Positions 893 through 19,443 of a DNA stretch of 64,000 bases are shown piece after piece (the stretch's first letter is position 1; the number at the start of each line of letters is the position of its first letter). The stretch is from Bradymonadia bacterium (GTDB lineage Bacteria; Myxococcota_A; Bradymonadia; UBA7976; UBA1532). Both the position numbers and the translations under genes were made by a program. The DNA is taken from assembly GCA_046290225.1 (NCBI GenBank), contig JBKAGE010000036.1, positions 64,001-128,000 on the forward strand. The letters are read 5' to 3'. The notes below the pieces were generated by a model that was given only the letters and a program-made list of their open reading frames with translations, searched no databases and was not told where the DNA came from.

Positions 893-1061
893 CGCGCTCC
901 TCCTCGAGGGTGGCAGAGGGGTCGTTGTGGTGAACGGCCCCAGGTGGCAGACAGCGGTTGACGCTGCACCCTCTCCGCAAGATACGTACCACCACCGCCG
1001 CTTCGGGGCGAGCGTTCTCCCCGCTGTGGTCATCTCTCGACAGACGTGAAAGGGGTTCACG

Positions 1062-1730: not shown

Positions 1731-2736
1731 GACGCGGATCCTCCCGTGTGCGCCAGATCTTGCCGTCGATGTAGTAGTGCCAGAGCACGATCATGGCAAA
1801 AGGCGTAAACACAAGCGACCACGAGCGATTCATCAGCGCCGTCACCTCGATCACCCCCACCACGATGCCATACACGAGGGCGAGCGAGCCCCAGCGCACC
1901 GCCATGGCCTGCCGCGGGAACCGCCGCCGTTGCCAGTGCATCACGAAACCCTGGTACTGCACGTTGTGATAGGCCGTCTCCAACGCCTCGGCCACGAGAA
2001 AAGGGGTGGCCGTGAGCCAGAACACGACACCGTGGGTCCCGATGGCCGCGCCCATCAGTGCCAGCTTGGGCCAGTTCACCCCCACCCCACGCCAGAGCCT
2101 CCAGATCTGCCGAGCGACGAACAAGCAGGTGGCCACCCCGAAGAGCAACATCAAGCCATCAGCCACAGATGAAGGCACTGAAGGAAACTGCACCTTCAAA
2201 GTGCCATAGACCGTACTCGGGGCCTCCTCGTCGACATAGTCGTGCACCGTGAGGGCCAACATACCCAGATAGAAGAATGCCCCATCGAGATGATCGTCCA
2301 CCGGGCGGAAGTCGGCGTTGAGCCCCTTGTAGATTTTGATGAAGCCCCAGTGCTGCCGGATGATGTGCCACGTGCCATAAAAGGCCGCGAAGATGATCAG
2401 CTCCCCCTCCAGCCCCATGGCGCCGAGCACGAACCCCGCGACGATGAACCCACCAAGCCCCCAGGTATGCGCCAGGCGATGGCGGGCGAAGCTCTCCTTG
2501 TCGAGATGCGTACGGCTGAACGTCTGGAAGATGTGCGGGTGGTCGAAGATCGCCGTGTAGACGAAGTAGGTGAGGATGATCGCGTCACCCCGGGGGCCCA
2601 CCTCGTAGGCATCGGCGAGGTGGTAGAGCCCGAGGAACAGCAAGGTGACGAGGGCGCCCCCGATGAAGAACAGCCCGTCATAGCGCGGGCTGACCAGCCA
2701 TCTGGTCTGTCGAGGGGGCGCCGGAGGTGCGTTCAC
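1696..2736 (-). CDS. Multi-pass membrane protein with His motifs, function unknown
   Basis: Many hydrophobic segments; motifs DHPHIFQT, WHIIRQHWG, YHNVQY, WHYYIDG. Confidence 0.7.
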   Translation of the reverse strand: MNAPPAPPRQTRWLVSPRYDGLFFIGGALVTLLFLGLYHLADAYEVGPRGDAIILTYFVYTAIFDHPHIFQTFSRTHLDKESFARHRLAHTWGLGGFIVAGFVLGAMGLEGELIIFAAFYGTWHIIRQHWGFIKIYKGLNADFRPVDDHLDGAFFYLGMLALTVHDYVDEEAPSTVYGTLKVQFPSVPSSVADGLMLLFGVATCLFVARQIWRLWRGVGVNWPKLALMGAAIGTHGVVFWLTATPFLVAEALETAYHNVQYQGFVMHWQRRRFPRQAMAVRWGSLALVYGIVVGVIEVTALMNRSWSLVFTPFAMIVLWHYYIDGKIWRTREDPRLKSLLTSSPTR

Positions 2737-3809
2737 TCAGCGCGTCCAGGGGTGGGCTCTGTCTCGACGGATGGCTTCAAAAGGCGAATGGCGATGCGCC
2801 CGGAGACCTTCCCACTGCACACCACCTCCAGGTGAACGCGCCCCGCCTCGGGGAACTGCGAGGGATAGAAGATCTTCTCGATGGGCCACCGGAACATGTA
2901 CCAGCCTTCCTTCGCAGTCACCTTCAGAGCCGGCTTGATCTGTACCGTGGCGCCGCCAGCATTGGCGAACTGAAAATGACAGGTGCGCCCTTTGCCGTCG
3001 GCGTTGCTCAGCATCACCTCGAATCGCTGAGCCTGACCCAGAGTCGCTTGAGCAGGCTGGATCGACGCCAGGCCCATGGCACCCTTGGGGCCCTTGACTG
3101 CGATCTTGGGGCTGGCTGACTTGTGGCTGGGTCCCTGGGAATTCGGTGACTGGGAGTTGGCTGACTGGGAGTTGGCTGACTGGGACGCCTGCGTCTCCGG
3201 CTTCTCGAGCTGGCTCACCTTCAGATAACGCGTCGAGGTTTTATCCAGCTTTGGCGTCTTCTTCTGAGTCTTCTTCTGGGCCTTCTTTTGCGGCTTCTTC
3301 GGTGCTGTGCGCTTGGGCGTCCTGGCAGAGGCTGCGAGCGCAGCACTTTGGGTGCTCTTCCTCTGCCTGGCCCGTGCTGGAGCCCGTCGCCCCTCTGATG
3401 CGCGCTTTGCTTGAGCAGGTGCCACCTGCTCTGCCTCGATGATCTCCACCGCGACGTCCTCTGGCTGCGTCTTCTCAGGTGCCTGGACGGCCTCCTCCCC
3501 CTTGAGCGCCTGAGCCTGAGTGAGGCGGCTCGCGCCCATCGCCAACGCGCCAGACAACTCCGGGCCCGGCGCGATCCCGGCATCGAAGCCCGGCGGTAGA
3601 TCCTCAGGACGTACTCGGGGCGGATCACCCTTGTCACCCGCCCCTGCGTCCAACGGCACCCTTGCATCGACCACCACCACACGTGGCGTCACGTCGGCGT
3701 CGCGCGTCGACTGTGCCTCTGGGGACGAACGATGGTGATGACCTGGATGATCGTGCTCACACCCGAGGGCAGTGCCGAACAACATCAACGCGAGCATCGC
3801 CGTGCGCAT
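2733..3809 (-). CDS. Hypothetical lipoprotein with His-rich N-terminus and low-complexity linker
   Basis: ATG 3809 with GGAGG upstream; lipobox ALGC followed by EHDHPGHHH; K-rich and SQSAN repeats; globular-looking C-terminus. Stop overlaps the next gene's start. Confidence 0.6.
   Translation of the reverse strand: MRTAMLALMLFGTALGCEHDHPGHHHRSSPEAQSTRDADVTPRVVVVDARVPLDAGAGDKGDPPRVRPEDLPPGFDAGIAPGPELSGALAMGASRLTQAQALKGEEAVQAPEKTQPEDVAVEIIEAEQVAPAQAKRASEGRRAPARARQRKSTQSAALAASARTPKRTAPKKPQKKAQKKTQKKTPKLDKTSTRYLKVSQLEKPETQASQSANSQSANSQSPNSQGPSHKSASPKIAVKGPKGAMGLASIQPAQATLGQAQRFEVMLSNADGKGRTCHFQFANAGGATVQIKPALKVTAKEGWYMFRWPIEKIFYPSQFPEAGRVHLEVVCSGKVSGRIAIRLLKPSVETEPTPGRAE
3148..3185. repeat. 15-bp tandem repeat (GACTGGGAGTTGGCT) x2.5, coding SQSAN units
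   Basis: Read directly from the sequence. Confidence 0.8.
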
Positions 3810-3865
3810 AACACACCTCCATACACCGCATGATTTTTCCCGACACTTGCCTTCATGACAAGAAT

Positions 3866-5089
3866 TCAGCGTGTACGGCGCCTCAAGCCCACAACCAGGA
3901 GCAAGCAGATCCACCCGATAGGCGCCTTGCCCGTATGGGCCTGGCACCCGCCGCGTTGCGTCACCCGGCGAGCGTTGAGAGAGGCCAGACGAGAGAGTTC
4001 ATCGCCAGCACGACACGACGCCGCCGCAGTGATCTCGGTGCAGAGCAGGCCCATGGCGGAGCAATCCTGCTCCTGAACCTGAGTCCCGTCACACAGCACC
4101 AGAACCTCGCCCCGGCACATGCCCCCCCAAGGGATGTCGTCACAGGGTGAAGGTGGCCGACAGTAGAACCCCAGCTCAGGGTTCACATAGCCACACACCG
4201 CACCGTCGTCCTGAGTACAATCTCGCTGGTTCACCTCGCCGTCTTCGCACCAGACCGCCGTGCGACCTTCGCAGGCACCAAAATAATCCAAACCATCACA
4301 GGCACCTGGAGGAGCTCCGGCGGCGCTGGCGTCGATCCAGTCCACGATGGCGTCGACGCGGGTGAGCTTGTCTTTGTCGACACAGGAGCTGTTGCCACGG
4401 TGCAGGACCGCCATGATCATCGGACCCTGCTCACCTTGAGCGAGGAGTGGTCCACCCGAATCACCATGGCAAAGGCCCTGAACCCCTTCCCCGTCGGTGA
4501 ACAGGTAATCGGCCTGGATGGCCGTGAGCACCACCGTGACGAAGTAGCGGCCTGTACGATCGGCGGCGCGGGTATCGCCAAAGCCTGCACCCTCCATCGG
4601 CTGGCCGAGGCGATCCCCCCCCACTGAAGTGCGGTTCACGGGGATCGGCTGCAGATTGGCGATCTCGGTCATCGGATCAGTGGTGAGGACGAGTACGGCA
4701 GCGTCGACCCCTGGATGCTCGTGAATGCTCTCCACCTCGAAGGTCCCGAGGGGTTGCTGGGGCTGAAGCCCGACGCCAAAGCCCACATTCTCCGGTGTCC
4801 GCCCACGCGTGCAATGACGCGCCGTGAGCACAGTACGTGGTGCGATCACCGTGCCCGTACACAGCGCCTGGCCAACGATGCCGTCGTAGTAGAGCCATCC
4901 GATGGCCAGCGCCTGTCCGGGGGTCACCGAAACGAGCGTGGGCTCTCGTGTGCCGTTGATCACAGCCTGCTCTTGTTGGGCGACCTGCGGTTGAGCAGAG
5001 ACCTGAGGTGTATCGAAGAAACAGTGTACGCCGACACACGTGAGGATGTGACACCACAAGAGAACGGTTGGGCGCGGAAACTTCGACAC
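3866..5089 (-). CDS. Secreted trypsin-like (S1) serine protease with Cys-rich domain and MYXO-CTERM-like anchor
   Basis: TARHC, DAAVL and GDSGGP catalytic-triad motifs; C-terminal GGC-x-hydrophobic-RRRTR tail; GAGGAG upstream of GTG. Confidence 0.85.
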   Translation of the reverse strand: MSKFPRPTVLLWCHILTCVGVHCFFDTPQVSAQPQVAQQEQAVINGTREPTLVSVTPGQALAIGWLYYDGIVGQALCTGTVIAPRTVLTARHCTRGRTPENVGFGVGLQPQQPLGTFEVESIHEHPGVDAAVLVLTTDPMTEIANLQPIPVNRTSVGGDRLGQPMEGAGFGDTRAADRTGRYFVTVVLTAIQADYLFTDGEGVQGLCHGDSGGPLLAQGEQGPMIMAVLHRGNSSCVDKDKLTRVDAIVDWIDASAAGAPPGACDGLDYFGACEGRTAVWCEDGEVNQRDCTQDDGAVCGYVNPELGFYCRPPSPCDDIPWGGMCRGEVLVLCDGTQVQEQDCSAMGLLCTEITAAASCRAGDELSRLASLNARRVTQRGGCQAHTGKAPIGWICLLLVVGLRRRTR

Positions 5090-5225: not shown

Positions 5226-5469
5226 CAACCTGAGCGTTGATGTCTCTGCTTGAGCTGCCGGCGACACACCTGATGTCTCAATGCCATTTTGCGCGCACAT
5301 AAAGGAACAACAATATGTACGATTCTCCTCCCTCATGTCTTCCATCTACCCACAGCCCCCCTTACACTCTTACCGCTGAGGTGACTTCATGTGTCTGGTC
5401 AGAGAGCCTCTGACAATACATGCGTAGAGCAAATGATTGTGTTGCATATCGGGTCGAGGAATTTTTTAC

Positions 5470-8400
5470 ATGTTCAATCTGAACTCAGGGTCGAGCGGGC
5501 GCGCCTGGCGAGTCGCGCTGATGCTCGTGGGCGGCTTTGCCGCGAGCGCCCCAATGACGGTCTCTGCCGAACACCAGTGTGTGGTGCAGGTAGATGGCAC
5601 TGTGAAGTGTTGGGGTCTAAACAACTATGGTCAGCTCGGCCAGGGTGATTCGCACAATCGGGGCACGGAGAGCCCCGAGATGTACGACGCCCTGCTCGAC
5701 ATCAACCTGGGGACAGGACGCACCAGTACACAACTGGAAGCCAACCTCAACAGCACCTGTGCGATCCTCGACGACGGCGGGGTGAAGTGCTGGGGTTACA
5801 ATGGCTACGGTCAGCTCGGTCACGGCAACACCACCCAGCGCGGTGACGGCAGCAACGAGACCGGTGACAACCTGCCCTATACCGACCTCGGGACCGACGG
5901 TCAGGGCAACGATCTCGATGCCACAGATCTCGCAATGGGTGATCGGCACGTCTGTGCGGTGCTGAACAATGGTGGGGTCAAATGCTGGGGCAACAACGGC
6001 AGTGGCCGCCTTGGTCAGGGGAACACGACTCAACGGGGCGACGGTGCCAACGAGATGGGCGACAACCTCGCCTACACCGCTCTGGGTACCGGCTACACAG
6101 CAACTCAGATCGACGCCTTCACCACTCACACCTGCGCCGTGCTCAACACAGGCGAGCTCAAATGCTGGGGCTACAACAACTACGGCCAGCTCGGTCAGGG
6201 TGACACCAGCGCCCGAGGCACTCAACAGCCCGAGATGTTCGGCGCCCTTGGCGACATCAACCTCGGCACAGGCCGCACTGCCACCCACGTGGCTCAGGGT
6301 AATACCCACGCCTGCGCCATCCTGGATGATGGCACCTTGAAGTGCTGGGGTTACAATGGTTACGGCCAGCTCGGCCAGAACAACACCACTCAGCTCGGCG
6401 ATGGCGCCAACGAGACCGGTGACAACCTGCCCACCGTCGATCTCGGCACCGGCCGCTCAGCGACTCAGGTCACGCTCGCCGATCGTCACTCCTGCGCGAT
6501 CCTCGACGACGGCAGCGTAAAATGCTGGGGCTACAACGGCCACGGACAGTTGGGTCAGGGGAACACCACCCAACGCGGTGATGGCGCCAACGAGATGGGC
6601 GACAACCTCACCACCGTCGATCTCGGCACGGGCCGCACTGCGGCACAGATCGACGCCAACTACTATCACACCTGCGCTCTGCTCGATGACGGCACGGTGA
6701 AGTGTTGGGGCTACAACAGCAACGGTCAGCTTGGCCAGGGCGACACACGCAACCGCGGCACTCAAGCCCCTGAGATGAACAGCGCACTCGGCGACATCGA
6801 CCTCGGGAGCGGCACCTCGGTGGTCTCCCTCGAGGCGGGCGCCAACTACAGCTGCGCGATTCTCGACGACAACTCTCTGAAGTGCTGGGGGTACAACGGC
6901 TACGGCAACCTCGGCCAGGGCAACACCACTCAGCGCGGCGACGGCGCCAACGAGATGGGCGACAACCTCGCCGTCACTGATCTCGGTACTGGCCGCACTG
7001 CCACTGACGTCGGTGCAGGCCTCTACCACGCCTGCGCTCGCCTCGATGACGGCAGTGTGAAGTGCTGGGGTTACAACAACTATGGCCAGCTGGGTCAGGG
7101 GAACACCACCCAACGGGGCGACGGCGCCAACGAGATGGGTGACAACCTCGTCGCTGTCGATCTTGGCACCGGCCGTACCGCCACCGCCGTCGATGCATTC
7201 TCCAGCACCAGCTGTGCAGTCCTCGATGATGGCAGCGTAAAATGCTGGGGTTACAACGGTTACGGCCAGCTCGGCCAGGAGGACACCCTCAGCCGCGGCA
7301 ACCAGCAGCCTGAGATGTATGACGCCCTGCTCGACGTCGACCTCGGTACCGGCCGCACAGTGAGCAAGGTCGAGGGGGGTGAAGCCTTCAGCTGTGCAGT
7401 CCTCGACGACGGCAGTGTGAAGTGCTGGGGTTACAACGGTTACGGCAACCTCGGTCAGGGCAACACCACTCAGCGTGGCGACGGTGCCAACGAGATGGGC
7501 GACAACCTCGCCGTCACTGATCTCGGCACTGGCCGCACCGCCACTGACGTCGGCCTCGGCCGCTATCACGCCTGTGCCCTGCTCGACGATGGCAGCGTGA
7601 AATGCTGGGGTTACAATGGCTACGGCCAGCTGGGCCAGGGCAACACCACCCAACGGGGCGACGGCGCCAACGAGATGGGCGACAACCTCGTCGCTGTCGA
7701 TCTTGGCACCGGCCGCACCGCCACCGCCGTCGACGCCATGGGCGACTTCAGCTGCGCCCTGCTCGATGATGGCAGTGTGAAGTGCTGGGGTTACAACGGC
7801 TACGGCAACCTCGGTCAGGAAGACACGCTCTCTCGCGGCACCCAGCAGCCAGAGATGTACGGTGCCCTCGACGATGTGAACCTGGGGACTGGCCGAACGG
7901 TCCAGCACGCGGCGGTGGGCAACCGCCACAACTGTGTGATCCTCGATGACGACACGGTGAAGTGCTGGGGCTACAACGGCTACGGCAACCTCGGTCAGGG
8001 CAACACCAGCGCCCGTGGCGACAGCGCCACCGAGATGGGCGACAACCTCGCTGTCACCGATCTCGGCACTGGCCGCACGGCGCAGCAGCTCGCTGCCGGT
8101 GAAGATCACGCCTGTGCCCTGCTCGACGACAACTCGATCAAGTGCTGGGGCCGCAACAACTATGGCCAGCTGGGTCAGGGGAACACCACCCAACGGGGCG
8201 ACGGCGCCAACGAGATGGGCGACAACCTCGCCGCCGTCGATCTTGGCGTGGGGCGTACCGCTACGGCCATCGACGCCCGAGGTGGCCAGACCTGCGCCAT
8301 CCTCGACACCGGTGACATGAAGTGCTGGGGCTACAATGGATACGGCCAGCTCGGCCAGGGCGATACCAACGCCCGTGGCAACACCCTCCCGGAGCGGTTC

Positions 8401-11400
8401 GGCTTCATCGACGATGTAGACGTGGGCACTGGTCGTACCCTGCAGCAGGTTGAGACCTCCGGGCAGCACATCTGCGCTCTGCTCGACGACGGCCAGGTGA
8501 AGTGCTGGGGCTACAACGCCCAAGGGCAGCTCGGGTTGAACACCACGGGCAACCGCGGCGACTCAGTGAGCGAGCTGGGCGACAACCTCGCCTACGCCAT
8601 CCTGGGCAACGATCCTCAGGGCAGCCCCTGGACTGCCACGGACATCGGCGCCGGTTACCGTCACAGTTGTGCATTGCTGAGCAATGGCGAGGTGAAGTGC
8701 TGGGGCCACAACAACTACGGCCAGCTCGGCATCGGCAACACCACCCAGACGGGGGACAACGCCAACGAGATGGGCGACAACCTCGCCACCGTCGATCTCG
8801 GCACCGGCCGCACCGCCACCGACATCGACGTGCGCTTCTCCACCACCTGCGCCACCCTCGACACCGGTGACATGAAGTGCTGGGGCTACAACGGATACGG
8901 CCAGCTCGGCCAGGGCGACACCAACAGTCGCGGCACTCAGCCCGAGGAGATGTTCGACAGCCTCGAAGACATCAACGTGGGCACGGGTCGCACCTTCGAC
9001 TGGATCGAGACCGGTGGCTACTTCACCTGTGGCCTGCTCGACAATGATCTCCTGAAGTGCTGGGGCCGCAACAACCGTGGCCAGCTCGCTCAGGGCAACA
9101 GCACCACCCGCGGCGACGGCACCAACGAGATGGGTGACAACCTCGCTTATGCCAGCCTGGGCACCGGCCGCACGGTGCAGAGCGTCGGCACCGGCCTGCA
9201 GCACGCCTGCGCGCTGCTGGACAATGGTCAGGTGAAGTGCTGGGGCTACAACGGCCATGGCAACCTCGGCCTCGGCAACACCACATACATCGGAGACGCC
9301 GTCAGCGAGATCGGCGACAACATGCAGGCCGTGGACCTGGGCACCGGCCGCACGGCCACCCAACTCTGGGTGGGGCCGTACCACAGCTGTGCTCGACTCA
9401 ATACGGGGGAGACCAAGTGCTGGGGGCTGAACAACTATGGTCAGCTCGGCTACGGAGACACTGCCTACCGTGGTGACGGCGGCAACGAGATGGGCGACAA
9501 CCTGCCGGCGGTGGACGTCGGCACGGGCCGCACCATCGTCGAAATGGCCCTGGGCCAGCAGCACAGCTGCGCACGCCTCGACAACGGCACGGTGAAGTGC
9601 TGGGGCCGCAACAACTTCGGCAACCTCGGCCAGGGCAACACCACCACCCGCGGCGATGGCGCCAACGAGATGGGCGACAACCTCGCCATCACCAACCTCG
9701 GCACCGGGCGCACCGCCACCCACATCGAGGCGGGCTACTATCACACCTGCGCCATTCTGGATAACGGCGACACCAAGTGCTGGGGCTACAACAACCAGGG
9801 GCAGCTCGGCTACGGCAACACCACCAGTCTGGGCACGAACGCTGGCCACATGGGCGACGGCCTCGCCGCCGTCGATCTTGGCACTGGCCTCACTGCGGTC
9901 AGCCTCGGCGCCTTCGGCAGCCACACCTGCGCGGTGCTCAGCGACGCCACGGTGAAGTGCTGGGGTGAGAACAACAATGGCGAGCTCGGCATCGGCACCA
10001 CCGACAACCGCGGTGATGCCGCCAACGAGATGGGTGACAACCTGCCCCGCGCCCGCATCCCCGCCGATACGGCCGTGGTGCAGGTCTCCGGTGGGTACAA
10101 CCAGACCTGCGCCCGCTACGCCGACGGCACGGGCAAGTGCTGGGGCTACAACGGCTACGGCCTCCTCGGCTACGAAGACACCGTTCAGCGCGGCGACATC
10201 TCATATGCCGTGGGCGACGAGCTGCCCTCGATCGACCTGGGCACAGGTCGCACGGTGGCGCAGAGCAGCGTGGGCTATCACCACGTGTGTGCGCTCCTCG
10301 ACGACAACTCCATCAAGTGTTGGGGTCGAAACGATCTCGGGCAGCTGGGTCAAGGGAACAACACCCAACGCGGTGACGGCGCCAACGAGATGGGCGACAA
10401 CCTCGCCGCCGTCGATCTCGGCACCGACAACGGCACCCCCTTCGTGGTGACCAAGCTCGTCTCGGGCCACTATCACAACTGTGCACTCTTCAACGACGGC
10501 CGCGCCAAGTGCTGGGGCTACAACAACAGCGGCCAGCTCGGCATCGAGAGCACCAGCACCCGCGGCACCAGCGCCACCCACATGGGCGACAACCTCGCCT
10601 TCGTGAACGTGGGCGCCGGCCGCACCATCACGGACATCGACGCCGGCGGCAACCACACCTGCGCCACCCTCGACGACAACACCGTCAAGTGCTGGGGTGA
10701 GAACAACAACGGCGAGCTCAACCTCGGCAGCAGCGACAACCGAGGCGATGGCGCCAATGAGATGGGCGACAACCTGCTCACCGCCGACATCATCTACGAC
10801 CGGCCGCTTGCCGGTGTCATCGCCGGCGAGAACCACAGCTGCGCCATCTTCAACGACGGCAACATGCAGTGCTGGGGCTACAACGGCCATGGCCAGCTGC
10901 TCCGGGGCGACACCACCCAGATCGGTGATCTGGGCTACGCCATCGCCGACGATCTGCGCCCCATCCTCCTGGGCACTGGCCGCACCGTCTCTGCTGTGTC
11001 GATGGGCACGCATCACACCTGCGCGCTGCTCGACGACAACACCGTCAAGTGCTGGGGCCGTAACGATCTCGGCCAGCTGGGTCAGGGCAACAACACTCAG
11101 CGGGGCGACGGCATCAACGAGATGGGTGACAACCTCGCCGCCGTCGATCTCGGCACTGACGGCGGTGTCCCCTTCGTCATCAGCCAGCTCGTCTCTGGCG
11201 ATCATCACAACTGCGTGCGGTTCAACGACGGCCGGGTGAAGTGCTGGGGCTACAACGTCTACGGTCAGCTCGGCATCGAGAACAACAGCAACCGCGGCAC
11301 CAGCGCCACCCACATGGGCGACAACCTCGCCTTCGTCGATCTCGGCACCGGCCGTACCGCCACCCACATCGAGGCGGGACACAACCACACCTGCGCCACC

Positions 11401-14400
11401 CTCGATGACAACTCGGTGAAGTGTTGGGGTTACAACAACGGTGGCCAGCTCGGCCTCGGTGATACAGCCAACCGCGGCGACAACGCCGACGAGATGGGGG
11501 ATGATCTCGCACCTGCGAAGATCCTCTCCATTGGTCGGGCGCCGGCGTACACCTTCTCGGGTGCCACCCACACCTGCGTGGCCTACGACGACGGCAACGT
11601 AAAGTGCTGGGGCAGCAACGGCAGCGGTCGCCTCGGTTATGGCGACTCGTTGAGCCGCGGTGACGCCACTGGTGGTGCCGGTGACGATCTCGACGGCATC
11701 GCCCTGGGCACTGGCCGCACCGCGGTCCAGCTCTCTGTGGGCTATCACCACGTGTGTGCACTGCTCGACGACAACAGCGTCAAGTGCTGGGGCCGAAACG
11801 ATCTCGGCCAGCTGGGTCAGGGCAGCAACACTCAGCGGGGCGACGGCATCAACGAGATGGGCGACAACCTCGCCGCCGTCGATCTCGGCACTGACGGCGG
11901 CAACCCCCTCGTGGTGAGCCAGCTGATCTCCGGTGCCCACCACAACTGCGTGCGGTTCAATGACGGCCGGGTGAAGTGCTGGGGTTATAACGTCTACGGT
12001 CAGCTCGGCATCGAGAACAACAGCAACCGCGGCACCAGCGCCACCCACATGGGCGACAACCTCGCCTTCGTCGATCTCGGCACCGGCCGCACCGCCACCC
12101 ACATCGAGGCGGGCTACCATCACACCTGCGCCACCCTCGACGACGAGACGGTGAAGTGCTGGGGCTACAACAACGGCGGCCAGCTCGGTCGCGGTGACAC
12201 CCACAACCGCGGCGACAACGCCAGCGAGATGGGTGACGATCTCGAGACGGTGAAGCTGTTCTTCCACCGGCCTCCGGTGGCCACCGCTGGCGGCAACACC
12301 CACAGCTGCATGGTGTTCAATGACGGCAACATCAAGTGTTGGGGCAGCAACAGCAACGGCCGCCTCGGCTACGGTGACACCCTCAGCCGCGGCGACAACA
12401 CCGGTGGGCTCAGTGATGATCTCGAGCCCATCGATCTCGGCACTGGGATCACGGCCACCGACGTCGCCGTGGGCTACTACCACGCATGTGCCTTGCTCGC
12501 CGACAACCAGGTGAAGTGCTGGGGCTACAACGCATATGGCCAGCTCGGCTTTGGCGGTACAGCCCAGACCGGCGACAGCCTCAACGAGATGGGCGACAAC
12601 CTCGGCCATGCCCTCCTCGGCACCGACAACGGCAACCCGTTGCAGGTGTCACAGCTCGTCTCCGGCAACCACCACATGTGTGCTCTCTTCGGCGGCACAG
12701 CCGCTGGCCAGGTGAAGTGCTGGGGCTACAACGGCCATGGTCAGCTCGGTTACGGCAACACCAACCACCGCGGTGATGGTGGCGTCGGCGAGCTCGGCGA
12801 CAACCTGCCCTTCGTCGATCTCGGTACGGGGCGCTCGGCCACCTTCCTCACCGCTGGGGCCAACCACACCTGCGCAGTGCTCGACAATGCGCGGGTGAAG
12901 TGCTGGGGCTACAACGGCAACGGCCAGCTCGGCCTGCTCGACACGGTGAGCCGCGGTGACGGCGCCGACGAGATGGGCGACAACCTCGAGTACGCCAAGA
13001 TCCCCACCAGCCGCCCAGTGGTGGCCCTGAGCGCCGGCGACAACCACACCTGCGCCATCTACGACAATGGCACCTCGAAGTGCTGGGGCAGCAACAGCAA
13101 CGGCCGTCTCGGCTATGGCGACACGCTCAGCCGGGGTGACAACAGCGGCGGTCTCGGCGACGATCTCGATCCTGTGGCCCTGGGCACCAACGCCCAAGGC
13201 GATCCCCTGCTCGCGACTCAGGTGGCGGCGGGCTACACCCACAGCTGCGCCCTGCTCGACAACGGCCGGGTGAAGTGCTGGGGCTACAACGGTTATGGCA
13301 ACCTCGGCACCGGCAACACCACTCAGTACGGCGACAGCGCCAACGAGATGGGCGACAACCTGCCCTTCGTGGACCTCGGCACCGACAACCAGGGGGACCC
13401 ACTGCTCGCCACCAAGGTCACTGCTGGCACCTACTTCAGCTGCGCGCTGCTGGAGAACAACACGGCGAAGTGCTGGGGCTATAACGGCCACGGTCAGATG
13501 GCCCAAGGCGACACCAACCACCGCGGTGATGCCGGTGCCTCGGAGCTCGGCGACAACCTGCCGGCCATCAACTTCGGCACCGGTCTCTATCCCGTGGACA
13601 TCGAGGCGTACTACTACCACGCCTGCGCCACCCTCAACGACGACACGGTGAAGTGCTGGGGCTACAACGCCCATGGCCAGCTCGGTCTGCTCGAGACCAA
13701 CAGCCGGGGTGACATCGTGCAGGAGATTGGCGACGGCATGGAGCGGCCGAAGATCATCTTCGATCGCGACGTGGTTCAAGTCATCCCAGGCTATCTGAGC
13801 ACCTGTGTGCGATTCGACGACGGCAACGTGAAGTGCTGGGGCAACAACGGCAACGGCCAGCTGCTCCAGGGCGACACGCTCAGCCGGGGCGACAACAGCG
13901 GCGGCCTCGGCGACGATCTCGAGCCTATCGATCTCGGCTTCAACAGCCAGGGGCAGCGACACACAGTCTCTCAGGTGACCACCGGCTACCTGTTCACCTG
14001 TGCGCTGCTCGACGATGGCAACGTGAAGTGCTGGGGTTACAACGGCAACGGCCAGCTCGGCCTCGGTCACACCAGCACCCGCGGCAACAGCCAGAACCAG
14101 ATGGGCGACAACCTGCCCTATGTCGACCTCGGCACCGGGCGCACCGCCACCCGCATCGAGGCGGGCTACTATCACGTGTGTGCCCAGCTCGATAACGACG
14201 AGGTGAAGTGTTGGGGCCACAACAGCAGCGGCCGCCTCGGCCAGGGGAACACCACCCAGCGGGGTGACGGCGCCAACGAGATGGGCGACAACCTCGCCGC
14301 AGTGTCGTACGGCGACGGACTCCAGTCGAAGGCTGTGCGCATCGGCTCCTACCACGGCTGCAGCATCGTCGAAGACAACGAGGGCACCACCACTGGGGTG

Positions 14401-17334
14401 AAGTGCTGGGGCTACAACGCCCATGGTCAGCTCGGTGTGCTGGCCACGGATCACCGCGGTGACGCCGCGGATGAGATGGGTGACGATCTCGAGTACGCCA
14501 AGATCCCCATGGATCGCGAAGTGGTCGACCTTGCCCTCGGCGAGTACCACAGCTGTGTGCGCCTCGCGGACGGCAATGTGAAGTGCTGGGGCTACAACGG
14601 CAACGGCCAGCTCGGCTACGGTGACACCCGATCCCGCGGCGACACCAGCGGTGGCATCGGGCGAGATTTGCCCACGGTGGATCTCGGCGACGGCGTGGTC
14701 GTGGTCTCGGTGGCTCAAGGCTACCGACACACCTGCGCCCTCACCGAAGAGGGTCTCGTGAAGTGCTGGGGTTACAACGGCAACGGCCAGCTCGGCCAGG
14801 GCCACTCAAGCAACCGCGGCAATTCCCGGAGCCACATGGGCGACAACCTGCCCTATGTCGATCTCGGCACGGATCGCACGGCGATCTCCATCACCGCGGG
14901 CTACAGCCACACCTGCGCATTGCTGGACAACAACCGGGTGAAGTGCTGGGGCTACAACGGACACGGCAACCTTGGCCAGGGCAACACCACCCAGCGCGGC
15001 GACGGCAGCAACGAGATGGGTGACAACCTCGCCTACACTGATCTCGGAGATGGCTTCGCTGCCACGGCCATCAGCGCCGGCGACTACCACACCTGTGCGA
15101 TCTTGAACGACGGCGCGGTGAAGTGCTGGGGCTACAACGGCAACGGCAGCCTCGGCCTCGGCAACACCGCCTACCGCGGTGACGGCGCCAACGAGATGGG
15201 CAACAACCTGCCTGCTGTGGATCTCGGCACTGGCCGCACGGCGCAGTTCATCTCCTCCGGCGGCTATCACACCTGCGCGGTGCTCGACGACAACAGCGTC
15301 AAGTGCTGGGGGTACAACGGCCACGGCAACCTCGGCCAGGGCAACACCACCCAGCGCGGCGACGGCAGCAACGAGATGGGCGATGCCCTGTTGGTGACCG
15401 ATCTGGGGCCGAACCGTCGGGCCCTCGCCATCAGCGCCGGCACCTATCACACCTGCGTCATCCTCGACAGCGGCGACACCAAGTGCTGGGGCTACAACGG
15501 CTATGGTCAGCTCGGCACTGGCAACACCAGCTACTACGGCGACAGCGCCAACGAGATGGGCGACAACCTGCCTGCCGTCAACCTCGGCGCCGGTCGCACC
15601 GCCCAGTCGGTCATGGCCCACGTGAACCACAGCTGCGCCGCCCTCGACGACAACAGCGTCAAGTGCTGGGGCCGCAACAACTACGGCCAGCTCGGCCAGG
15701 GCAGCACCCAGCAGATCGACAACAGCGTCGAGTTCGGCGACAACCTCGTCGCCGTGGATCTCGGCCTCGACACCATCGACCCCCGCAACGCCCTCAACAA
15801 CGGCAACCCCGTACCCTGTGACGACACGGATGAGGACGGCATCTGCGATGGCGGTGACAACTGCCCGCTGGTGGCCAACCTCGACCAGGCTGATCGGGAC
15901 TTCGACGGCATCGGCAACGTCTGCGACGTGTGCCCCGATGATGCGTTGAACGACGGGGACAACGACGGTCACTGTGGCTCGGTGGACAACTGCCCCGTCA
16001 TCGCCAACGCCGATCAGGCCAACGCGGACGGAGATGCCTTCGGTGATGTCTGCGACGCGTGCACCTTCGACGCCGACAACGACATCGACGCCGACGGCAT
16101 CTGCGGCGACGTGGACAACTGCCCCACGCTGTCCAACCCCGACCAGCGGGACGACGACGGCAACGGTCTCGGCGATGCCTGTGTAGCCACCGACGCCGAG
16201 ATCGGTCCCGACACCAACATCCACCCCTCGGTCATCATCAGCTCCGGCTGTGTCATCGGGAATGCAGTGCAGATCGGCGCCAACACGCTGCTCAAGCCCA
16301 ACTGCCGCCTCGACAGCAACGTGGTGGTGGGGGCTGACGTGGTCATCGGCATCAGCACTCACCTGCACGCCTACGCCAGCGTCGGTGACGGGTCCAACAT
16401 CGGCGACGGCGCCGAGATCGGCCAGTTCAGCCACTTTGGCGCCAACACGCTGGTGGCGGCAGACGTGGCCATCGGCCGCCGGGTCACCGTGGGTGACAAC
16501 GCCCAGATCGCCGGCACCATGGGCAACTCCATCGGCATCGGCGACGACTTCATCCTCGGCGCTGGCTCCGACTGGCAGAACAACATGACCGCTGGGGATC
16601 GGGTGACGATCGGCGCCAACTCGGTCATCGAGTCGAACACCCGCATCGGCAACGATGTGGTCATCGGCGACGAAGGCTTCGCGGGTGACTACACCACCAT
16701 CGAGAGCGATGTGACCTTCGGTGTGAGGGCCTACCTCGCCGACGGTACCGAGATCGGTAACCGGGTGGTCACTGGGGACGACTTCGAGTCTCGAGGCTTC
16801 GTCCGCGACGACATCACCGCCGGCGACAATGTCTTCATCGGCGTACAGGGCACCGTGAGCCCTGGTGCCCAGCTCGCCGACAACAGCTCGGTGAGCAACT
16901 ACGCCACCGTGGGCCCCGACGCGGTGCTCGCCGCCGACGTACGTGTCTACGACCGCGCAGTGGTGGGTGCCCGGGTCAACCTCGGCGCCAACACTGTGGT
17001 GCTCTTCAACGCTCAGATAGGCGACGACTTCACCATGGGCTCCGACGGCATCATCGATGATGGATCCATCGTCGGTGACAACTGCACCTTCGGCACCAAC
17101 AGCCGGGTCTGGCCCTACGTCACCATCGGCGACAACGGCAACTTCGGCTCTGGGGTGATCATCGGCCTGAACGCCGAGGTGGGCGTCGACGCCCTCTTCG
17201 AGAACAACGTCACCGTGTGGGCCGAGACGGTCATCGGGGATCGCGTGATTCTGCGTCAGGGCTCCGAGGTTCGCTACCAGGCCACCGTGGCCAGCGACGC
17301 CGAGGTGGGCGCCAACCAGATCGTCGAGCGCTGA
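5470..17334 (+). CDS. Giant secreted protein: 56 RCC1-like repeats + TSP3-like Ca-binding repeats + long hexapeptide (left-handed beta-helix) domain
   Basis: ATG 5470 with GAGGA upstream; signal-peptide-like N-terminus. 56 ~60-aa repeats GxxHxC-x8-KCWGxNxxGQLG (5605-15770). DxDxDGxxDxCD repeats at 15817-16182. [LIV]G-x4 hexapeptides at 16183-17331. Confidence 0.92.
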   Translation: MFNLNSGSSGRAWRVALMLVGGFAASAPMTVSAEHQCVVQVDGTVKCWGLNNYGQLGQGDSHNRGTESPEMYDALLDINLGTGRTSTQLEANLNSTCAILDDGGVKCWGYNGYGQLGHGNTTQRGDGSNETGDNLPYTDLGTDGQGNDLDATDLAMGDRHVCAVLNNGGVKCWGNNGSGRLGQGNTTQRGDGANEMGDNLAYTALGTGYTATQIDAFTTHTCAVLNTGELKCWGYNNYGQLGQGDTSARGTQQPEMFGALGDINLGTGRTATHVAQGNTHACAILDDGTLKCWGYNGYGQLGQNNTTQLGDGANETGDNLPTVDLGTGRSATQVTLADRHSCAILDDGSVKCWGYNGHGQLGQGNTTQRGDGANEMGDNLTTVDLGTGRTAAQIDANYYHTCALLDDGTVKCWGYNSNGQLGQGDTRNRGTQAPEMNSALGDIDLGSGTSVVSLEAGANYSCAILDDNSLKCWGYNGYGNLGQGNTTQRGDGANEMGDNLAVTDLGTGRTATDVGAGLYHACARLDDGSVKCWGYNNYGQLGQGNTTQRGDGANEMGDNLVAVDLGTGRTATAVDAFSSTSCAVLDDGSVKCWGYNGYGQLGQEDTLSRGNQQPEMYDALLDVDLGTGRTVSKVEGGEAFSCAVLDDGSVKCWGYNGYGNLGQGNTTQRGDGANEMGDNLAVTDLGTGRTATDVGLGRYHACALLDDGSVKCWGYNGYGQLGQGNTTQRGDGANEMGDNLVAVDLGTGRTATAVDAMGDFSCALLDDGSVKCWGYNGYGNLGQEDTLSRGTQQPEMYGALDDVNLGTGRTVQHAAVGNRHNCVILDDDTVKCWGYNGYGNLGQGNTSARGDSATEMGDNLAVTDLGTGRTAQQLAAGEDHACALLDDNSIKCWGRNNYGQLGQGNTTQRGDGANEMGDNLAAVDLGVGRTATAIDARGGQTCAILDTGDMKCWGYNGYGQLGQGDTNARGNTLPERFGFIDDVDVGTGRTLQQVETSGQHICALLDDGQVKCWGYNAQGQLGLNTTGNRGDSVSELGDNLAYAILGNDPQGSPWTATDIGAGYRHSCALLSNGEVKCWGHNNYGQLGIGNTTQTGDNANEMGDNLATVDLGTGRTATDIDVRFSTTCATLDTGDMKCWGYNGYGQLGQGDTNSRGTQPEEMFDSLEDINVGTGRTFDWIETGGYFTCGLLDNDLLKCWGRNNRGQLAQGNSTTRGDGTNEMGDNLAYASLGTGRTVQSVGTGLQHACALLDNGQVKCWGYNGHGNLGLGNTTYIGDAVSEIGDNMQAVDLGTGRTATQLWVGPYHSCARLNTGETKCWGLNNYGQLGYGDTAYRGDGGNEMGDNLPAVDVGTGRTIVEMALGQQHSCARLDNGTVKCWGRNNFGNLGQGNTTTRGDGANEMGDNLAITNLGTGRTATHIEAGYYHTCAILDNGDTKCWGYNNQGQLGYGNTTSLGTNAGHMGDGLAAVDLGTGLTAVSLGAFGSHTCAVLSDATVKCWGENNNGELGIGTTDNRGDAANEMGDNLPRARIPADTAVVQVSGGYNQTCARYADGTGKCWGYNGYGLLGYEDTVQRGDISYAVGDELPSIDLGTGRTVAQSSVGYHHVCALLDDNSIKCWGRNDLGQLGQGNNTQRGDGANEMGDNLAAVDLGTDNGTPFVVTKLVSGHYHNCALFNDGRAKCWGYNNSGQLGIESTSTRGTSATHMGDNLAFVNVGAGRTITDIDAGGNHTCATLDDNTVKCWGENNNGELNLGSSDNRGDGANEMGDNLLTADIIYDRPLAGVIAGENHSCAIFNDGNMQCWGYNGHGQLLRGDTTQIGDLGYAIADDLRPILLGTGRTVSAVSMGTHHTCALLDDNTVKCWGRNDLGQLGQGNNTQRGDGINEMGDNLAAVDLGTDGGVPFVISQLVSGDHHNCVRFNDGRVKCWGYNVYGQLGIENNSNRGTSATHMGDNLAFVDLGTGRTATHIEAGHNHTCATLDDNSVKCWGYNNGGQLGLGDTANRGDNADEMGDDLAPAKILSIGRAPAYTFSGATHTCVAYDDGNVKCWGSNGSGRLGYGDSLSRGDATGGAGDDLDGIALGTGRTAVQLSVGYHHVCALLDDNSVKCWGRNDLGQLGQGSNTQRGDGINEMGDNLAAVDLGTDGGNPLVVSQLISGAHHNCVRFNDGRVKCWGYNVYGQLGIENNSNRGTSATHMGDNLAFVDLGTGRTATHIEAGYHHTCATLDDETVKCWGYNNGGQLGRGDTHNRGDNASEMGDDLETVKLFFHRPPVATAGGNTHSCMVFNDGNIKCWGSNSNGRLGYGDTLSRGDNTGGLSDDLEPIDLGTGITATDVAVGYYHACALLADNQVKCWGYNAYGQLGFGGTAQTGDSLNEMGDNLGHALLGTDNGNPLQVSQLVSGNHHMCALFGGTAAGQVKCWGYNGHGQLGYGNTNHRGDGGVGELGDNLPFVDLGTGRSATFLTAGANHTCAVLDNARVKCWGYNGNGQLGLLDTVSRGDGADEMGDNLEYAKIPTSRPVVALSAGDNHTCAIYDNGTSKCWGSNSNGRLGYGDTLSRGDNSGGLGDDLDPVALGTNAQGDPLLATQVAAGYTHSCALLDNGRVKCWGYNGYGNLGTGNTTQYGDSANEMGDNLPFVDLGTDNQGDPLLATKVTAGTYFSCALLENNTAKCWGYNGHGQMAQGDTNHRGDAGASELGDNLPAINFGTGLYPVDIEAYYYHACATLNDDTVKCWGYNAHGQLGLLETNSRGDIVQEIGDGMERPKIIFDRDVVQVIPGYLSTCVRFDDGNVKCWGNNGNGQLLQGDTLSRGDNSGGLGDDLEPIDLGFNSQGQRHTVSQVTTGYLFTCALLDDGNVKCWGYNGNGQLGLGHTSTRGNSQNQMGDNLPYVDLGTGRTATRIEAGYYHVCAQLDNDEVKCWGHNSSGRLGQGNTTQRGDGANEMGDNLAAVSYGDGLQSKAVRIGSYHGCSIVEDNEGTTTGVKCWGYNAHGQLGVLATDHRGDAADEMGDDLEYAKIPMDREVVDLALGEYHSCVRLADGNVKCWGYNGNGQLGYGDTRSRGDTSGGIGRDLPTVDLGDGVVVVSVAQGYRHTCALTEEGLVKCWGYNGNGQLGQGHSSNRGNSRSHMGDNLPYVDLGTDRTAISITAGYSHTCALLDNNRVKCWGYNGHGNLGQGNTTQRGDGSNEMGDNLAYTDLGDGFAATAISAGDYHTCAILNDGAVKCWGYNGNGSLGLGNTAYRGDGANEMGNNLPAVDLGTGRTAQFISSGGYHTCAVLDDNSVKCWGYNGHGNLGQGNTTQRGDGSNEMGDALLVTDLGPNRRALAISAGTYHTCVILDSGDTKCWGYNGYGQLGTGNTSYYGDSANEMGDNLPAVNLGAGRTAQSVMAHVNHSCAALDDNSVKCWGRNNYGQLGQGSTQQIDNSVEFGDNLVAVDLGLDTIDPRNALNNGNPVPCDDTDEDGICDGGDNCPLVANLDQADRDFDGIGNVCDVCPDDALNDGDNDGHCGSVDNCPVIANADQANADGDAFGDVCDACTFDADNDIDADGICGDVDNCPTLSNPDQRDDDGNGLGDACVATDAEIGPDTNIHPSVIISSGCVIGNAVQIGANTLLKPNCRLDSNVVVGADVVIGISTHLHAYASVGDGSNIGDGAEIGQFSHFGANTLVAADVAIGRRVTVGDNAQIAGTMGNSIGIGDDFILGAGSDWQNNMTAGDRVTIGANSVIESNTRIGNDVVIGDEGFAGDYTTIESDVTFGVRAYLADGTEIGNRVVTGDDFESRGFVRDDITAGDNVFIGVQGTVSPGAQLADNSSVSNYATVGPDAVLAADVRVYDRAVVGARVNLGANTVVLFNAQIGDDFTMGSDGIIDDGSIVGDNCTFGTNSRVWPYVTIGDNGNFGSGVIIGLNAEVGVDALFENNVTVWAETVIGDRVILRQGSEVRYQATVASDAEVGANQIVER
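5570..15770 (+). repeat. Intragenic ~180-bp repeat array (56 units) with ~540-bp then ~730-bp super-periods
   Basis: The KCWG codons recur every 180-201 nt. Several super-units are nearly identical at DNA level (6901-7440 vs 7441-7980; about 11040-11460 vs 11775-12195). Confidence 0.9.
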
Positions 17335-17448
17335 TGTCGGGGCCGCTCGCGCCCTGACCCCCTCCGACAGCATCTCTTCTCAAGGCACAGCCGGGTCATG
17401 TTAGGTTGCCCCGTCTGTTGATCTGCCCAGTCACGAGAAGAGCCTCCC

Positions 17449-19443
17449 ATGGACGACACCACTCTCGCAGCCGCCCTCGCGGGCACCCCCTACGCTGGCG
17501 ATTTGCCCGGCCTCGACGCACTCATCGCCGGCGTGCATGCCGCCCCCCGGCCACGGGATCCCAGAGCCTGGATGGTTCTGGCAGGCGTCGATCCGACGAG
17601 CGAAGCCGCTGATCATCTGCAGGCCCGCTTCGAGGCGCTGACTCCCGCAGCCATCGAGGCCCCCTCGCCTGCAGCCCGCGTGGAGGCCCTGCGAGCGGCC
17701 ATGAGTGCCCGTGATCTCGCAGGCTTCGTCATCCCCCGGGCTGACGCCCACCAGGGGGAGTATGTACCTTCCTGCGCCGAGCGCCTCGCCTGGCTCACGG
17801 ACTTTACGGGCTCTGCCGGGGCCGCGGTGGTGCTTCGAGAGAAGGCGGCAGTCTTCGTCGACGGTCGATACACCCTTCAGGTCACCGATCAGGTCGATCT
17901 CGATCTGTTCGAGACGCTGCACCTCATCAATGATCCCCACGTGCGTTGGGCCGCAGATCAGCTGAGCGCTGGCGATCGCCTGGGGTACGATCCACGCCTG
18001 CACACGCTGAGCTGGATCGAGCGGGCCACGGCCACCCTCGAGGCCGTCGGCGCCACCCTGGTTCCCGTGGACGCCAACCTGGTGGACGAGGCCTGGGGTG
18101 ATGCCCGACCACCGGCCCCCATCTCTCCGGTCATCTCACAGAGCATCGAGCTCGCTGGCGAGTCGAGCGCGGACAAGCGGGTGGCCATCGGCGAAGCCCT
18201 CGCCCTGGCGAAGATCCCGGCGGACGCCACCGTGCTCACCCGACCAGAGTCCATCGCATGGCTGCTCAACGTCCGCGGCGCCGATGTGCCGCGTACACCA
18301 CTGCCCTTGTCATACGCCATCGTGCGCAGCACCGGCGCAGTGCAGTGGTTCATCGATCCCCGCAAGCTCACCCCTGCTGTCACCGAAGGCCTCGACGCCG
18401 AGGTCACAGTGCACCCCATCGAGGATCTCGGCTCTGCCCTTCAAGCCCTCGGCGGGACCGTGCAGGTCGACCCGGCTCAGGACAGCGGCTGGATCGGCGA
18501 TCACCTCCGTGCCGGTGGGGCCACCCTGAGCAAGGCTCAAGATCCGACCCTGATGCCCAAGGCCACCAAGAACGCCGCGGAGCAGGCGGGCACCCGGGCT
18601 GCGCACCTGAGAGACGGCGTGGCGCTGGTGAAGTTCCTCGCCTGGATCGACGCCCACGGCCCCTCGGGTTCGATCACCGAGCTTCAGGCCGTGGATCAGT
18701 TGTACGCCTTCAGGGCCGAGAGCGAGCTGCTGCGGGATCTCAGCTTCGACACCATCTCGGGCAGCGGCCCCAACGGCGCCATCGTGCACTACCGGGTCAC
18801 CGAAGAGAGCGATCGCCCCCTGGGACCCGGAGAGCTGTACCTCGTGGACAGCGGCGCTCAGTACCCTGACGGCACCACCGACGTGACCCGCACTGTGGCC
18901 ATCGGCGAGCCCACGGACGAGATGCGGCACCGATTCACCCGGGTACTGCAGGGGCACATCGCTCTGGGCTGCGCCTGCTTCCCCGAAGGCACCACGGGCA
19001 GTCACCTCGACGTGCTGGCCCGTATGCCGCTCTGGCGCGATGGTCTCGATTACGATCACGGCACGGGTCACGGCGTGGGCAGCTACCTCTCGGTGCACGA
19101 GGGGCCTCAACGCATCTCTCAGCGAATGAGCACCGTGCCATTGCAGGTGGGCATGATCTGCTCCAACGAGCCAGGCTTCTATCAGACCGACGGCTACGGC
19201 ATCCGCATCGAGAACCTGGTGCTGGTGGTGCCTGCCGAGGGGCTGCTGGGCGATCGGGCGATGCTGAGCTTCGAGACCCTGACCCTGGCGCCGATCGATC
19301 GACGCCTCATCGACACCGCGATGCTCACCGAGAGCGAGCGGGCATGGGTCGACGCCTATCACGCTCGGGTGCGTGAGGCCCTCAGCCCCCACCTCGACGC
19401 AGAGACGGTGCGCTGGCTCGAGGCGGCCACTCAGGCGCTGTGA
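17449..19443 (+). CDS. Aminopeptidase P family (M24B, Xaa-Pro aminopeptidase)
   Basis: DAHQGEY, FTGSAG, DGRY, DSGAQYxDGTTD, HGTGHGVG, VHEGP, SNEPG and GIRIEN motifs. Confidence 0.93.
   Translation: MDDTTLAAALAGTPYAGDLPGLDALIAGVHAAPRPRDPRAWMVLAGVDPTSEAADHLQARFEALTPAAIEAPSPAARVEALRAAMSARDLAGFVIPRADAHQGEYVPSCAERLAWLTDFTGSAGAAVVLREKAAVFVDGRYTLQVTDQVDLDLFETLHLINDPHVRWAADQLSAGDRLGYDPRLHTLSWIERATATLEAVGATLVPVDANLVDEAWGDARPPAPISPVISQSIELAGESSADKRVAIGEALALAKIPADATVLTRPESIAWLLNVRGADVPRTPLPLSYAIVRSTGAVQWFIDPRKLTPAVTEGLDAEVTVHPIEDLGSALQALGGTVQVDPAQDSGWIGDHLRAGGATLSKAQDPTLMPKATKNAAEQAGTRAAHLRDGVALVKFLAWIDAHGPSGSITELQAVDQLYAFRAESELLRDLSFDTISGSGPNGAIVHYRVTEESDRPLGPGELYLVDSGAQYPDGTTDVTRTVAIGEPTDEMRHRFTRVLQGHIALGCACFPEGTTGSHLDVLARMPLWRDGLDYDHGTGHGVGSYLSVHEGPQRISQRMSTVPLQVGMICSNEPGFYQTDGYGIRIENLVLVVPAEGLLGDRAMLSFETLTLAPIDRRLIDTAMLTESERAWVDAYHARVREALSPHLDAETVRWLEAATQAL

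Follow-up and report, generated by a model that had tools for sequence, protein, structure and literature searches.

A 56-blade RCC1-repeat protein from a Bradymonadia bacterium with loop arithmetic suggestive of nested β-propellers

We analyzed a stretch of 64,000 nucleotides (the window) from the 8.58 Mb, 83-contig genome of a Bradymonadia bacterium (contig JBKAGE010000036.1; G000:C36:64001-128000). On its forward strand the window carries a gene for a giant, probably exported protein of 3,954 residues, most of which is an uninterrupted array of 56 RCC1-type repeats, or blades. These blades very probably form eight closed seven-bladed propellers, judging from their number. The order of variant loops along the array suggests, tentatively, that the chain follows a nested, out-and-back path, a reading that we place slightly ahead of a simple row of tandem rings. 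If so, the protein would possibly be a Russian-doll rod of eight propellers (eleven in a 77-blade paralogue), each spliced into the C-D loop of its parent's third blade. Nesting accounts for more of the sequence features; in favour of tandem rings are their simplicity and the larger number of precedents.

The blade array and its loop classes

The motif CWG occurs exactly 56 times in the reading frame, preceded by lysine in 55 blades and by glutamine in one, in agreement with the count in an original prediction made from the DNA letters alone. Successive blades are 60 residues apart in 42 of the 55 intervals, and because the spacing never exceeds 67 residues we regard the array as free of linkers. 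A second cysteine lies 6-14 residues upstream of CWG in 55 of the 56 blades, which suggests that each blade may contain one disulfide. By profile score the protein belongs to the RCC1-like repeat family: the first 478 residues match RCC1_2 (PF13540) at 219.7 bits (cut-off 22), WD40_RLD (RLD, PF25390) at 217.7 bits (cut-off 150) and RCC1 (PF00415) at 108 bits (cut-off 21.7). The first two scores also back the earlier description of the product as a giant exported RCC1-repeat protein.

The standard loop RGDGANEMGDNL, which had been described as present in most blades, is found in its exact form in only 11 of the 56, although a relaxed form occurs in 32. Three classes of variant loop depart from it, all located between the CWG strand and the next short strand; for the A- and C-type loops this would correspond to the position between strands C and D. 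A-type loops (RG[TN]xxPEM...) follow blades 1, 4, 7, 10, 13, 16 and 19 (n=7), and C-type loops follow blades 26, 30, 34, 38, 42, 46 and 50 (n=7). Both series are as first reported, and the approximate coordinates given for them agree with ours. A third class, the D-type loop, had not been noticed before. It lacks DLGTG and stands ahead of every C-type loop, on blades 25, 29, 33, 37, 41, 45 and 49, with DLGTGRT exchanged for forms such as KIPxxRPV. The patterns that define the loop classes were written only after the loops had been inspected.

The 3-blade and 4-blade periods marked by these loops involve whole blades, beyond the loops alone. Mean blade identity is 0.692 at offset 3 (blades 1-21) and 0.638 at offset 4 (blades 25-52), values that none of 5000 shuffles reached in either case. 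At offset 7 it is 0.484, and 4953 of 5000 shuffles were equal or higher. Blades at this distance resemble each other less than randomly chosen ones do, so the array seems never to have grown by whole rings. At the DNA level the repeat copies are 62-83% identical, the newest units being at 83%, and no exact internal repeat is longer than about 104 bases. With copies this divergent, a collapse or other artefact of assembly is unlikely.

Bracket arithmetic and a 77-blade paralogue

When each A-type loop is taken as an opening bracket and each C-type loop as a closing one, every bracketed group contains seven blades. This holds for 8 of 8 groups in the window protein and for 11 of 11 in its paralogue P0003 (G000:C44; L009, G000:C44:74949-90557), that is, for 19 of 19 together. 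P0003 has 5,195 residues, is 50% identical to the window protein, and contains 77 blades with ten A-type loops (blades 1 to 28) and ten C-type loops (blades 35 to 71). Its layout is the same: one blade, a series of 3-blade units, a central seven, a series of 4-blade units and a tail of six. P0003, the only relative of like design, thus shows the equal numbers of the two blocks (10 A and 10 C) that the original prediction expected in homologues of a nested protein. In two of its blades (residues about 3380 and 3866) the motif, invariant elsewhere, reads CFG instead of CWG; both are T-type and lie in adjacent 4-blade units.

In both proteins seven blades separate the last A-type from the first C-type loop, and the first blade and the tail also add up to seven. 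Nesting predicts these two values separately, whereas tandem rings fix only their sum. In the window protein the central group consists of five generic blades (20-24), a D-type blade (25) and a C-type blade (26). Its third blade (22, or 31 in P0003) carries no A-type loop, and C- and D-type loops are absent from the six blades at the end of the array, as would be expected where no crossing between rings is needed.

The two series also appear to have grown in step. The DNA identity of the newest pair of units is 0.83 for the 3-blade and 0.83 for the 4-blade series of the window gene; for P0003 it is 0.88 and 0.88-0.89, respectively. The three most similar 3-blade units of P0003 (B6-8) are exact mirror partners of its three most similar 4-blade units (C2-4), and similarities correlate at 0.67 under mirror pairing vs 0.17 under parallel pairing. 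A nested array would lengthen by paired duplication, one 3-blade unit together with one 4-blade unit.

A possible nested path

In the nested path, blade 1 would be laid down first, and the chain would then leave the outermost ring through an A-type loop. Running outward, it would give three blades to each of six further rings, with an exit from each by an A-type loop, and would form a contiguous tip ring from blades 20-26. On the return it would give four blades to each ring and leave each by a C-type loop. The array would end with six blades and a final strand A, which would close the N-terminal blade that lacks one. Each inner ring would be spliced into the C-D loop of its parent's third blade, much as BPB is spliced into BPA in Trm734; we place the splice there because both variant loops sit between strands C and D. 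The resulting rod would be doubly linked, with two crossing loops between neighbouring rings, and both termini would lie at its base beside the C-terminal stalk of thrombospondin type 3 (TSP3) repeats and β-helix.

The relatives encoded in the same genome bear on the closure of the rings. About 20 single-ring proteins share the C-terminal TSP3/β-helix module. In the single-ring paralogues the strands are ordered [B C D]-[A B C D]x6-[A], with a lone final strand A ahead of the TSP3 repeats, so that their ring would have to be closed by this last strand A. Blade 1 of the window protein is likewise without a strand A of its own, as in 8 single-ring paralogues, and both giants retain such a first blade together with a lone strand-A-like segment behind the last blade. 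By comparison with its counterpart in the single-ring proteins, this segment would complete the N-terminal blade across the entire array.

A third giant, L010 (G000:C77:71967-82577; 3,537 residues), is built differently. Its rings each begin with strand B and end with strand A, are joined by cysteine-bearing, TSP3-like linkers of about 20-25 residues, and carry Gly-rich inserts of roughly 70 to more than 100 residues before the last blade. A-, C- and D-type loops are absent from all 8 clean single-ring paralogues and from the linker-joined L010. Among the RCC1 proteins of the genome that were compared, they are confined to the two linker-free giants, which suggests that they are tied to the architecture.

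Two further comparisons were made. An assignment of blades to ancestral ring positions by way of the 8 single-ring paralogues, meant to show whether 3- and 4-blade units complement each other within one ring, failed, as blades 2-5 of the paralogues are too similar to one another (margins 0-15 score units). A comparison of strand residues between type consensuses, in search of complementary blade faces, gave no readable result without coordinates.

Structure predictions and points against nesting

We modelled two parts of the array with AlphaFold2. The first, blades 17-30, had been named in the original prediction as a check. Its alignment was assembled from shifted pieces of the two paralogues, with MAFFT placing the overlapping pieces on their true overlap. 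The model has low confidence (pLDDT 56.7, pTM 0.49) and shows no nesting. Only its last 6-7 blades are ring-like, and 49 of the 50 PDB matches listed cover just residues ~480-570 to 897 (blades 24/25-30). It appears too weak to decide the question.

The second model, blades 20-30, was based on an alignment of 43 other sequences, 33 natural relatives among them, and reached pLDDT 85.9 and pTM 0.73 (the five models span 83.4-85.9). Seven-bladed RCC1-like chains, including the closed rings of UVR8, HERC2 and RPGR, fit it about equally well in at least five registers (36-471, 93-536, 119-594, 211-659 and 273-695; 340-366 residues aligned, rmsd 3.8-4.6, Z 20-24). So many equal registers are not what one planar ring with a separate arc would give, and the alignment ranges point instead to an open spiral with a turn every seven blades or so. 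As modelled, the chain runs past the C-type loop of blade 26 without a break and forms no separate ring of blades 20-26; the lowest internal confidence (69-73) falls at this very loop. The spiral is likely an artefact of the 11-blade fragment. Taken at face value, the model would contradict nested and tandem closed rings equally and would leave the multiples of seven unexplained. The nested path as first proposed thus agrees with the bracket arithmetic but was reproduced by neither model. Sequential rings and rings of six or eight blades, the outcomes that had been named as contrary to it, were seen in neither model as well.

Besides these models, several other points weigh against nesting. 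Equal numbers of A- and C-type loops, and balanced growth, are expected whenever the total has to be a multiple of seven, since such a requirement forces a (the number of A-type loops) to equal c (that of C-type loops) modulo 7 under either arrangement. The choice of the C-type rather than the D-type loop as the closing bracket is one of two options; the gap of seven between last A and first C would arise by chance about 1 time in 7, or 2 in 7 given this choice. The newest pairs of the window gene, B3/B4 and C2/C3, miss mirror register by one place, and the mirror correlation is 0.30 vs 0.41 for parallel pairing. As the two proteins are paralogues, P0003 adds a second data point only through the equal growth that followed their divergence. 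Identity among the 3-blade units is 56-85%, so that there would be little bar to local mis-pairing during export, while about 1,300 residues awaited their partners. Among 40 related genomes and 80 metagenome loci, no relative that could test the rule of equal A and C numbers was found.

Alternative arrangements

Eight sequential propellers (blades 1-7, 8-14 and so on), closed without a shared closing blade, are the simplest reading of the array and a serious contender, to which we give a little less credence than to nesting. The 3- and 4-blade periods would then be higher-order repeats produced by unequal crossing-over and uninformative about the fold, and the variant loops would be passengers of the amplified units, or surface sites. 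Each change of +3 would be offset by one of +4 so that the total stays divisible by seven, and A- and C-type loops would therefore remain equal in number. The original prediction had held that tandem sevens do not fit the periodicity; this was wrong, as 3a+4c is divisible by 7 whenever a=c, the total then being 7a+14 blades, and the counts of 56 and 77 fit. Other RCC1 arrays also have multiples of seven CWG motifs (28, 56, 21, 14 and so on, in a crude count). In L013, a linker-free protein of 14 blades, a period of seven stands out clearly (0.69 vs ~0.51), and the ring-like end of the blades 17-30 model is also compatible with tandem rings. The two rings of Aip1 are sequential. A linker-free double WD40 propeller has been solved for this protein (1NR0, 'two seven-bladed beta-propeller domains').

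Tandem rings leave a number of features unexplained, namely the exact seven between the last A and first C, the two adjacent unit sizes that sum to seven, the restriction of A-, C- and D-type loops to the linker-free giants, and the avoidance of growth by whole rings, which would have been harmless (offset-7 identity is below nearly all shuffles). Blade 1 would also have stayed without a strand A while a lone strand A stands eight rings away. With closure as in the rest of the family, the chain should on geometric grounds enter and leave a ring at one spot and so require linkers; L010 has them and the window protein has none. The array lacks both linkers (maximum spacing 67 residues) and period-7 similarity, although neither feature is obligatory for tandem arrays.

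An open spiral, in which the blades never close and form a continuous helix of eight turns, each of about seven blades, is improbable. The confident model of blades 20-30 and its equal fit to closed seven-bladed chains in at least five windows favour it, and it is consistent with the missing linkers and the missing period-7 signal. It needs no multiple of seven, however, and yet both proteins have one (56 and 77), reached by balanced +3 and +4 growth. The modelled fragment of 11 blades was unable to close whole rings, so the model may be an artefact of the cut, and no solved chain matched it over more than about one turn. Other closed forms are, even taken jointly, more improbable still. In a bracelet of eight tandem rings the last strand A would reach blade 1; the matching N and C ends require merely that the ends meet, but no data point to a bracelet specifically. 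A split outer ring (1+6) could surround a non-nested interior, except that seven tandem rings would have distant ends and could hardly be inserted in a single loop. Rings of six (3+3) and eight (4+4) blades would fit the window protein (24=4x6, 32=4x8) if blades 22-24 and 53-56 were degenerate units. They were rejected because P0003 would have 11+11 units, or 33 and 44 blades, which cannot be divided into such rings.

Relatives outside the genome

The named relatives of the giant protein are from Myxococcota, and the long relatives number more than 1,100. Outside this genome, whether in related genomes, metagenome loci or phage records, we found no protein that shares the 3-then-4 pattern. A strong match (E<=1e-60) was present in one of 40 related genomes (G018), a frame of 2,449 residues with 41% identity that was not inspected. 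The 80 metagenome loci contained 19 frames with at least 10 blades, none of which had the pattern; L053 peaks at offset 4, but with 4 gaps among its 10 detected blades. For the 14 matching phage records the identity is only 25-28%. Among the matches listed, relatives have a period of 6-7 and/or gaps of more than 75 residues, and none has the 3-then-4 pattern. The distant linker-free arrays P0074, P0027 and P0050 are too irregular for bracket parsing. TSP3 repeats dominated the hits of a representative search made with the C-terminal module.

Domain organization and neighbouring genes

The gene occupies a single open frame (5437-17334, forward strand), and translation from the ATG at 5470 gives a product identical to the protein on record, P0002 (3,954 residues), which agrees with this start. 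The original prediction had placed the gene at 5470..15770. The start of that interval stands, although the ATG there was not named as the start codon; its end does not, as the gene continues to 17334 with a C-terminal module of TSP3 repeats and β-helix that had been missed. Coordinates are collected in Table 1. The first 33 residues, read by eye without a signal-peptide program, consist of a basic start, a hydrophobic core VALMLVGGFAASAP and then VSA, and are a probable Sec signal peptide; the mature chain opens with EHQCVVQVDGTVKCWG.

The final 526 residues, behind the array, are TSP3 repeats followed by a hexapeptide left-handed β-helix. TSP_3 (PF02412) scores 47.9 bits (cut-off 25) over 3 stretches, and PDB chains of COMP and thrombospondin match the region with E values of 1e-21 to 3e-14 (COMP 3FBY, 1.1e-21). 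Hexapep (PF00132) scores 138 bits (cut-off 27) over 7 stretches, and chains of LpxA, LpxD and GlmU match with E values of 1e-7 to 1e-4. The β-helix module recurs in 43 open frames of the genome (tblastn). The combined module (window 15817-17331; loci L091-L102) carries differing heads, among them single RCC1 rings, PKD arrays and fibrinogen C domains. It looks like a shared stalk or anchor of many surface proteins. The window protein is probably exported and calcium-binding, and would probably function as an extracellular, calcium-stabilized fibre or as an adhesin head upon this stalk. Ran guanine-nucleotide exchange and chromatin binding are not expected of an exported bacterial protein.

Table 1. 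Positions of the giant gene and its parts in the window
Feature	Position	Strand	Basis
Whole gene, 3,954 residues and stop codon	5470..17334	+	Open frame; identical to P0002
Probable Sec signal peptide, 33 residues, ending ..TVSA	5470..5568	+	Reading by eye
Mature N-terminus, beginning at strand B of blade 1 (EHQC..KCWG)	5569..5616	+	Sequence
Blades 1-21, seven 3-blade units (A-type, s1, s2)	5608..9417	+	Offset-3 identity
A-type loop, blade 1	5617..5718	+	Motif
A-type loop, blade 4	6172..6273	+	Motif
A-type loop, blade 7	6712..6813	+	Motif
A-type loop, blade 10	7252..7353	+	Motif
A-type loop, blade 13	7792..7893	+	Motif
A-type loop, blade 16	8332..8433	+	Motif
A-type loop, blade 19 (last 'open')	8887..8988	+	Motif
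Blades 20-26, seven contiguous between last A- and first C-type loop	9058..10146	+	Group size 7
Blades 25-52, seven 4-blade units (D, C, R, T types)	9958..15131	+	Offset-4 identity
Span of seven D-type loops	9967..14514	+	Motif
D-type loops, blades 25, 29, 33, 37	9967-10068, 10699-10800, 11431-11532, 12166-12267	+	
D-type loops, blades 41, 45, 49	12910-13011, 13663-13764, 14413-14514	+	
C-type loop, blade 26 (first 'close')	10147..10248	+	Motif
C-type loop, blade 30	10879..10980	+	Motif
C-type loop, blade 34	11614..11715	+	Motif
C-type loop, blade 38	12346..12447	+	Motif
C-type loop, blade 42	13090..13191	+	Motif
C-type loop, blade 46	13843..13944	+	Motif
C-type loop, blade 50 (last 'close')	14593..14694	+	Motif
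Blades 51-56, six blades free of A-, C- and D-type loops	14764..15771	+	Loop typing
Lone strand-A-like segment behind blade 56	15772..15804	+	Sequence; comparison with single-ring paralogues
TSP3 calcium-binding repeats (predicted binding)	15817..16185	+	Pfam; PDB chain matches
Left-handed β-helix (hexapeptide repeats)	16186..17331	+	Pfam; PDB chain matches

Over the repeat array (window 6001-16000) the AT skew is +0.15 to +0.22, compared with mostly -0.08 to +0.17 in the rest of the window, and is probably a product of the amino-acid composition of the repeats. Long open frames of 688, 453, 802, 718 and 855 residues lie antisense to the gene (window 6457-17373, reverse strand). Such frames are usual for GC-rich repeats, and nothing marks these as genes.

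The giant gene is adjoined by a gene for an Xaa-Pro aminopeptidase of family M24 (17449-19443, forward strand), whose best named relatives (about 57% identity) belong to Azospirillum and other Alphaproteobacteria. This affinity is odd against the other matches of the genome, which point to Myxococcota, and the gene may be a horizontal acquisition. Upstream, on the reverse strand (212-5089), lie frames for a trypsin-like protease (3866-5089) and an outer-membrane β-barrel protein (212-1129), and two further frames without a Pfam match.

Comparison with known propeller proteins

The nearest likeness to the proposed splice is in Trm734. There, the chain goes from c7 of BPA into d1 of BPB and comes back from c1 of BPB to d7 of BPA, and the last propeller is closed by an N-terminal strand over the whole intervening stretch (PMC6847430). 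One propeller is thus spliced into a c-d loop and the returning strand completes the parent blade; the variant loops of the window protein also appear to lie between C and D. The differences are considerable. In the Trm734 type the propellers are WD40, single strands cross, there are at most three rings with real linkers, and the protein is intracellular; in the window protein they are RCC1, three and four blades would cross, and there would be eight levels (eleven in P0003), a nesting that we infer whereas that of Trm734 has been solved. DDB1, CPSF160 and SF3B3 are triple WD40 propellers akin to Trm734.

AMBRA1 has one seven-bladed ring formed from two distant segments of about 3.5 blades each (PMC10665379). 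The insert between them is a long disordered region rather than a series of propellers, and the protein has a single ring and is intracellular. RCC1, UVR8, the RLDs of HERC2, RPGR and BLIP-II belong to the same repeat family as the window protein, each with one seven-blade ring as against 56 linker-free blades. Unlike single RCC1-like domains, the window blades each have an extra acidic loop, and 55 of the 56 have two cysteines. Giant proteins of Oscillospiraceae have been reported to be extracellular and to consist almost entirely of RCC1 repeats; chain topology is not discussed in the portion of that preprint available to us (bioRxiv 10.1101/2023.11.21.568195).

For the tandem arrangement the precedents are Aip1 (1NR0) and PWP2 (5I2T), with fourteen blades and two sequential rings in one chain; these are WD40 proteins with two rings only. 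Precedent for an out-and-back chain exists outside the propellers altogether. In streptococcal antigen I/II such a chain joins distant segments into one stalk, which is made of an α-helix and a polyproline helix, not split β-propellers, and has no sequence relation to the window protein. In the papers listed by our literature search, neither nested, interlocked, split nor discontinuous propellers were mentioned under these names, and we found no description of such a design or of nested RCC1 arrays; the lone match to 'propeller inserted' concerns Piezo1.

Implications

β-Propellers are textbook examples of closed repeat folds, and chains with several propellers are usually read as beads on a string. 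The solved propeller-in-propeller insertions that we know of are only one or two levels deep. For the window protein and its paralogue the distinction between tandem rings and nesting of eight or eleven levels is drawn, unusually cleanly, by the arithmetic of the sequences alone. The two arrangements make opposite predictions for the position of the termini, for cross-links between blades, and for the fragments that can fold. Nesting, if real, would represent a new principle by which rigid surface fibres are built and extended, and a hard test case for structure prediction, which missed it here. If nesting is false, the two proteins would still be a rare example of ring closure constraining the evolution of repeats, through compensating duplications of three and four blades.

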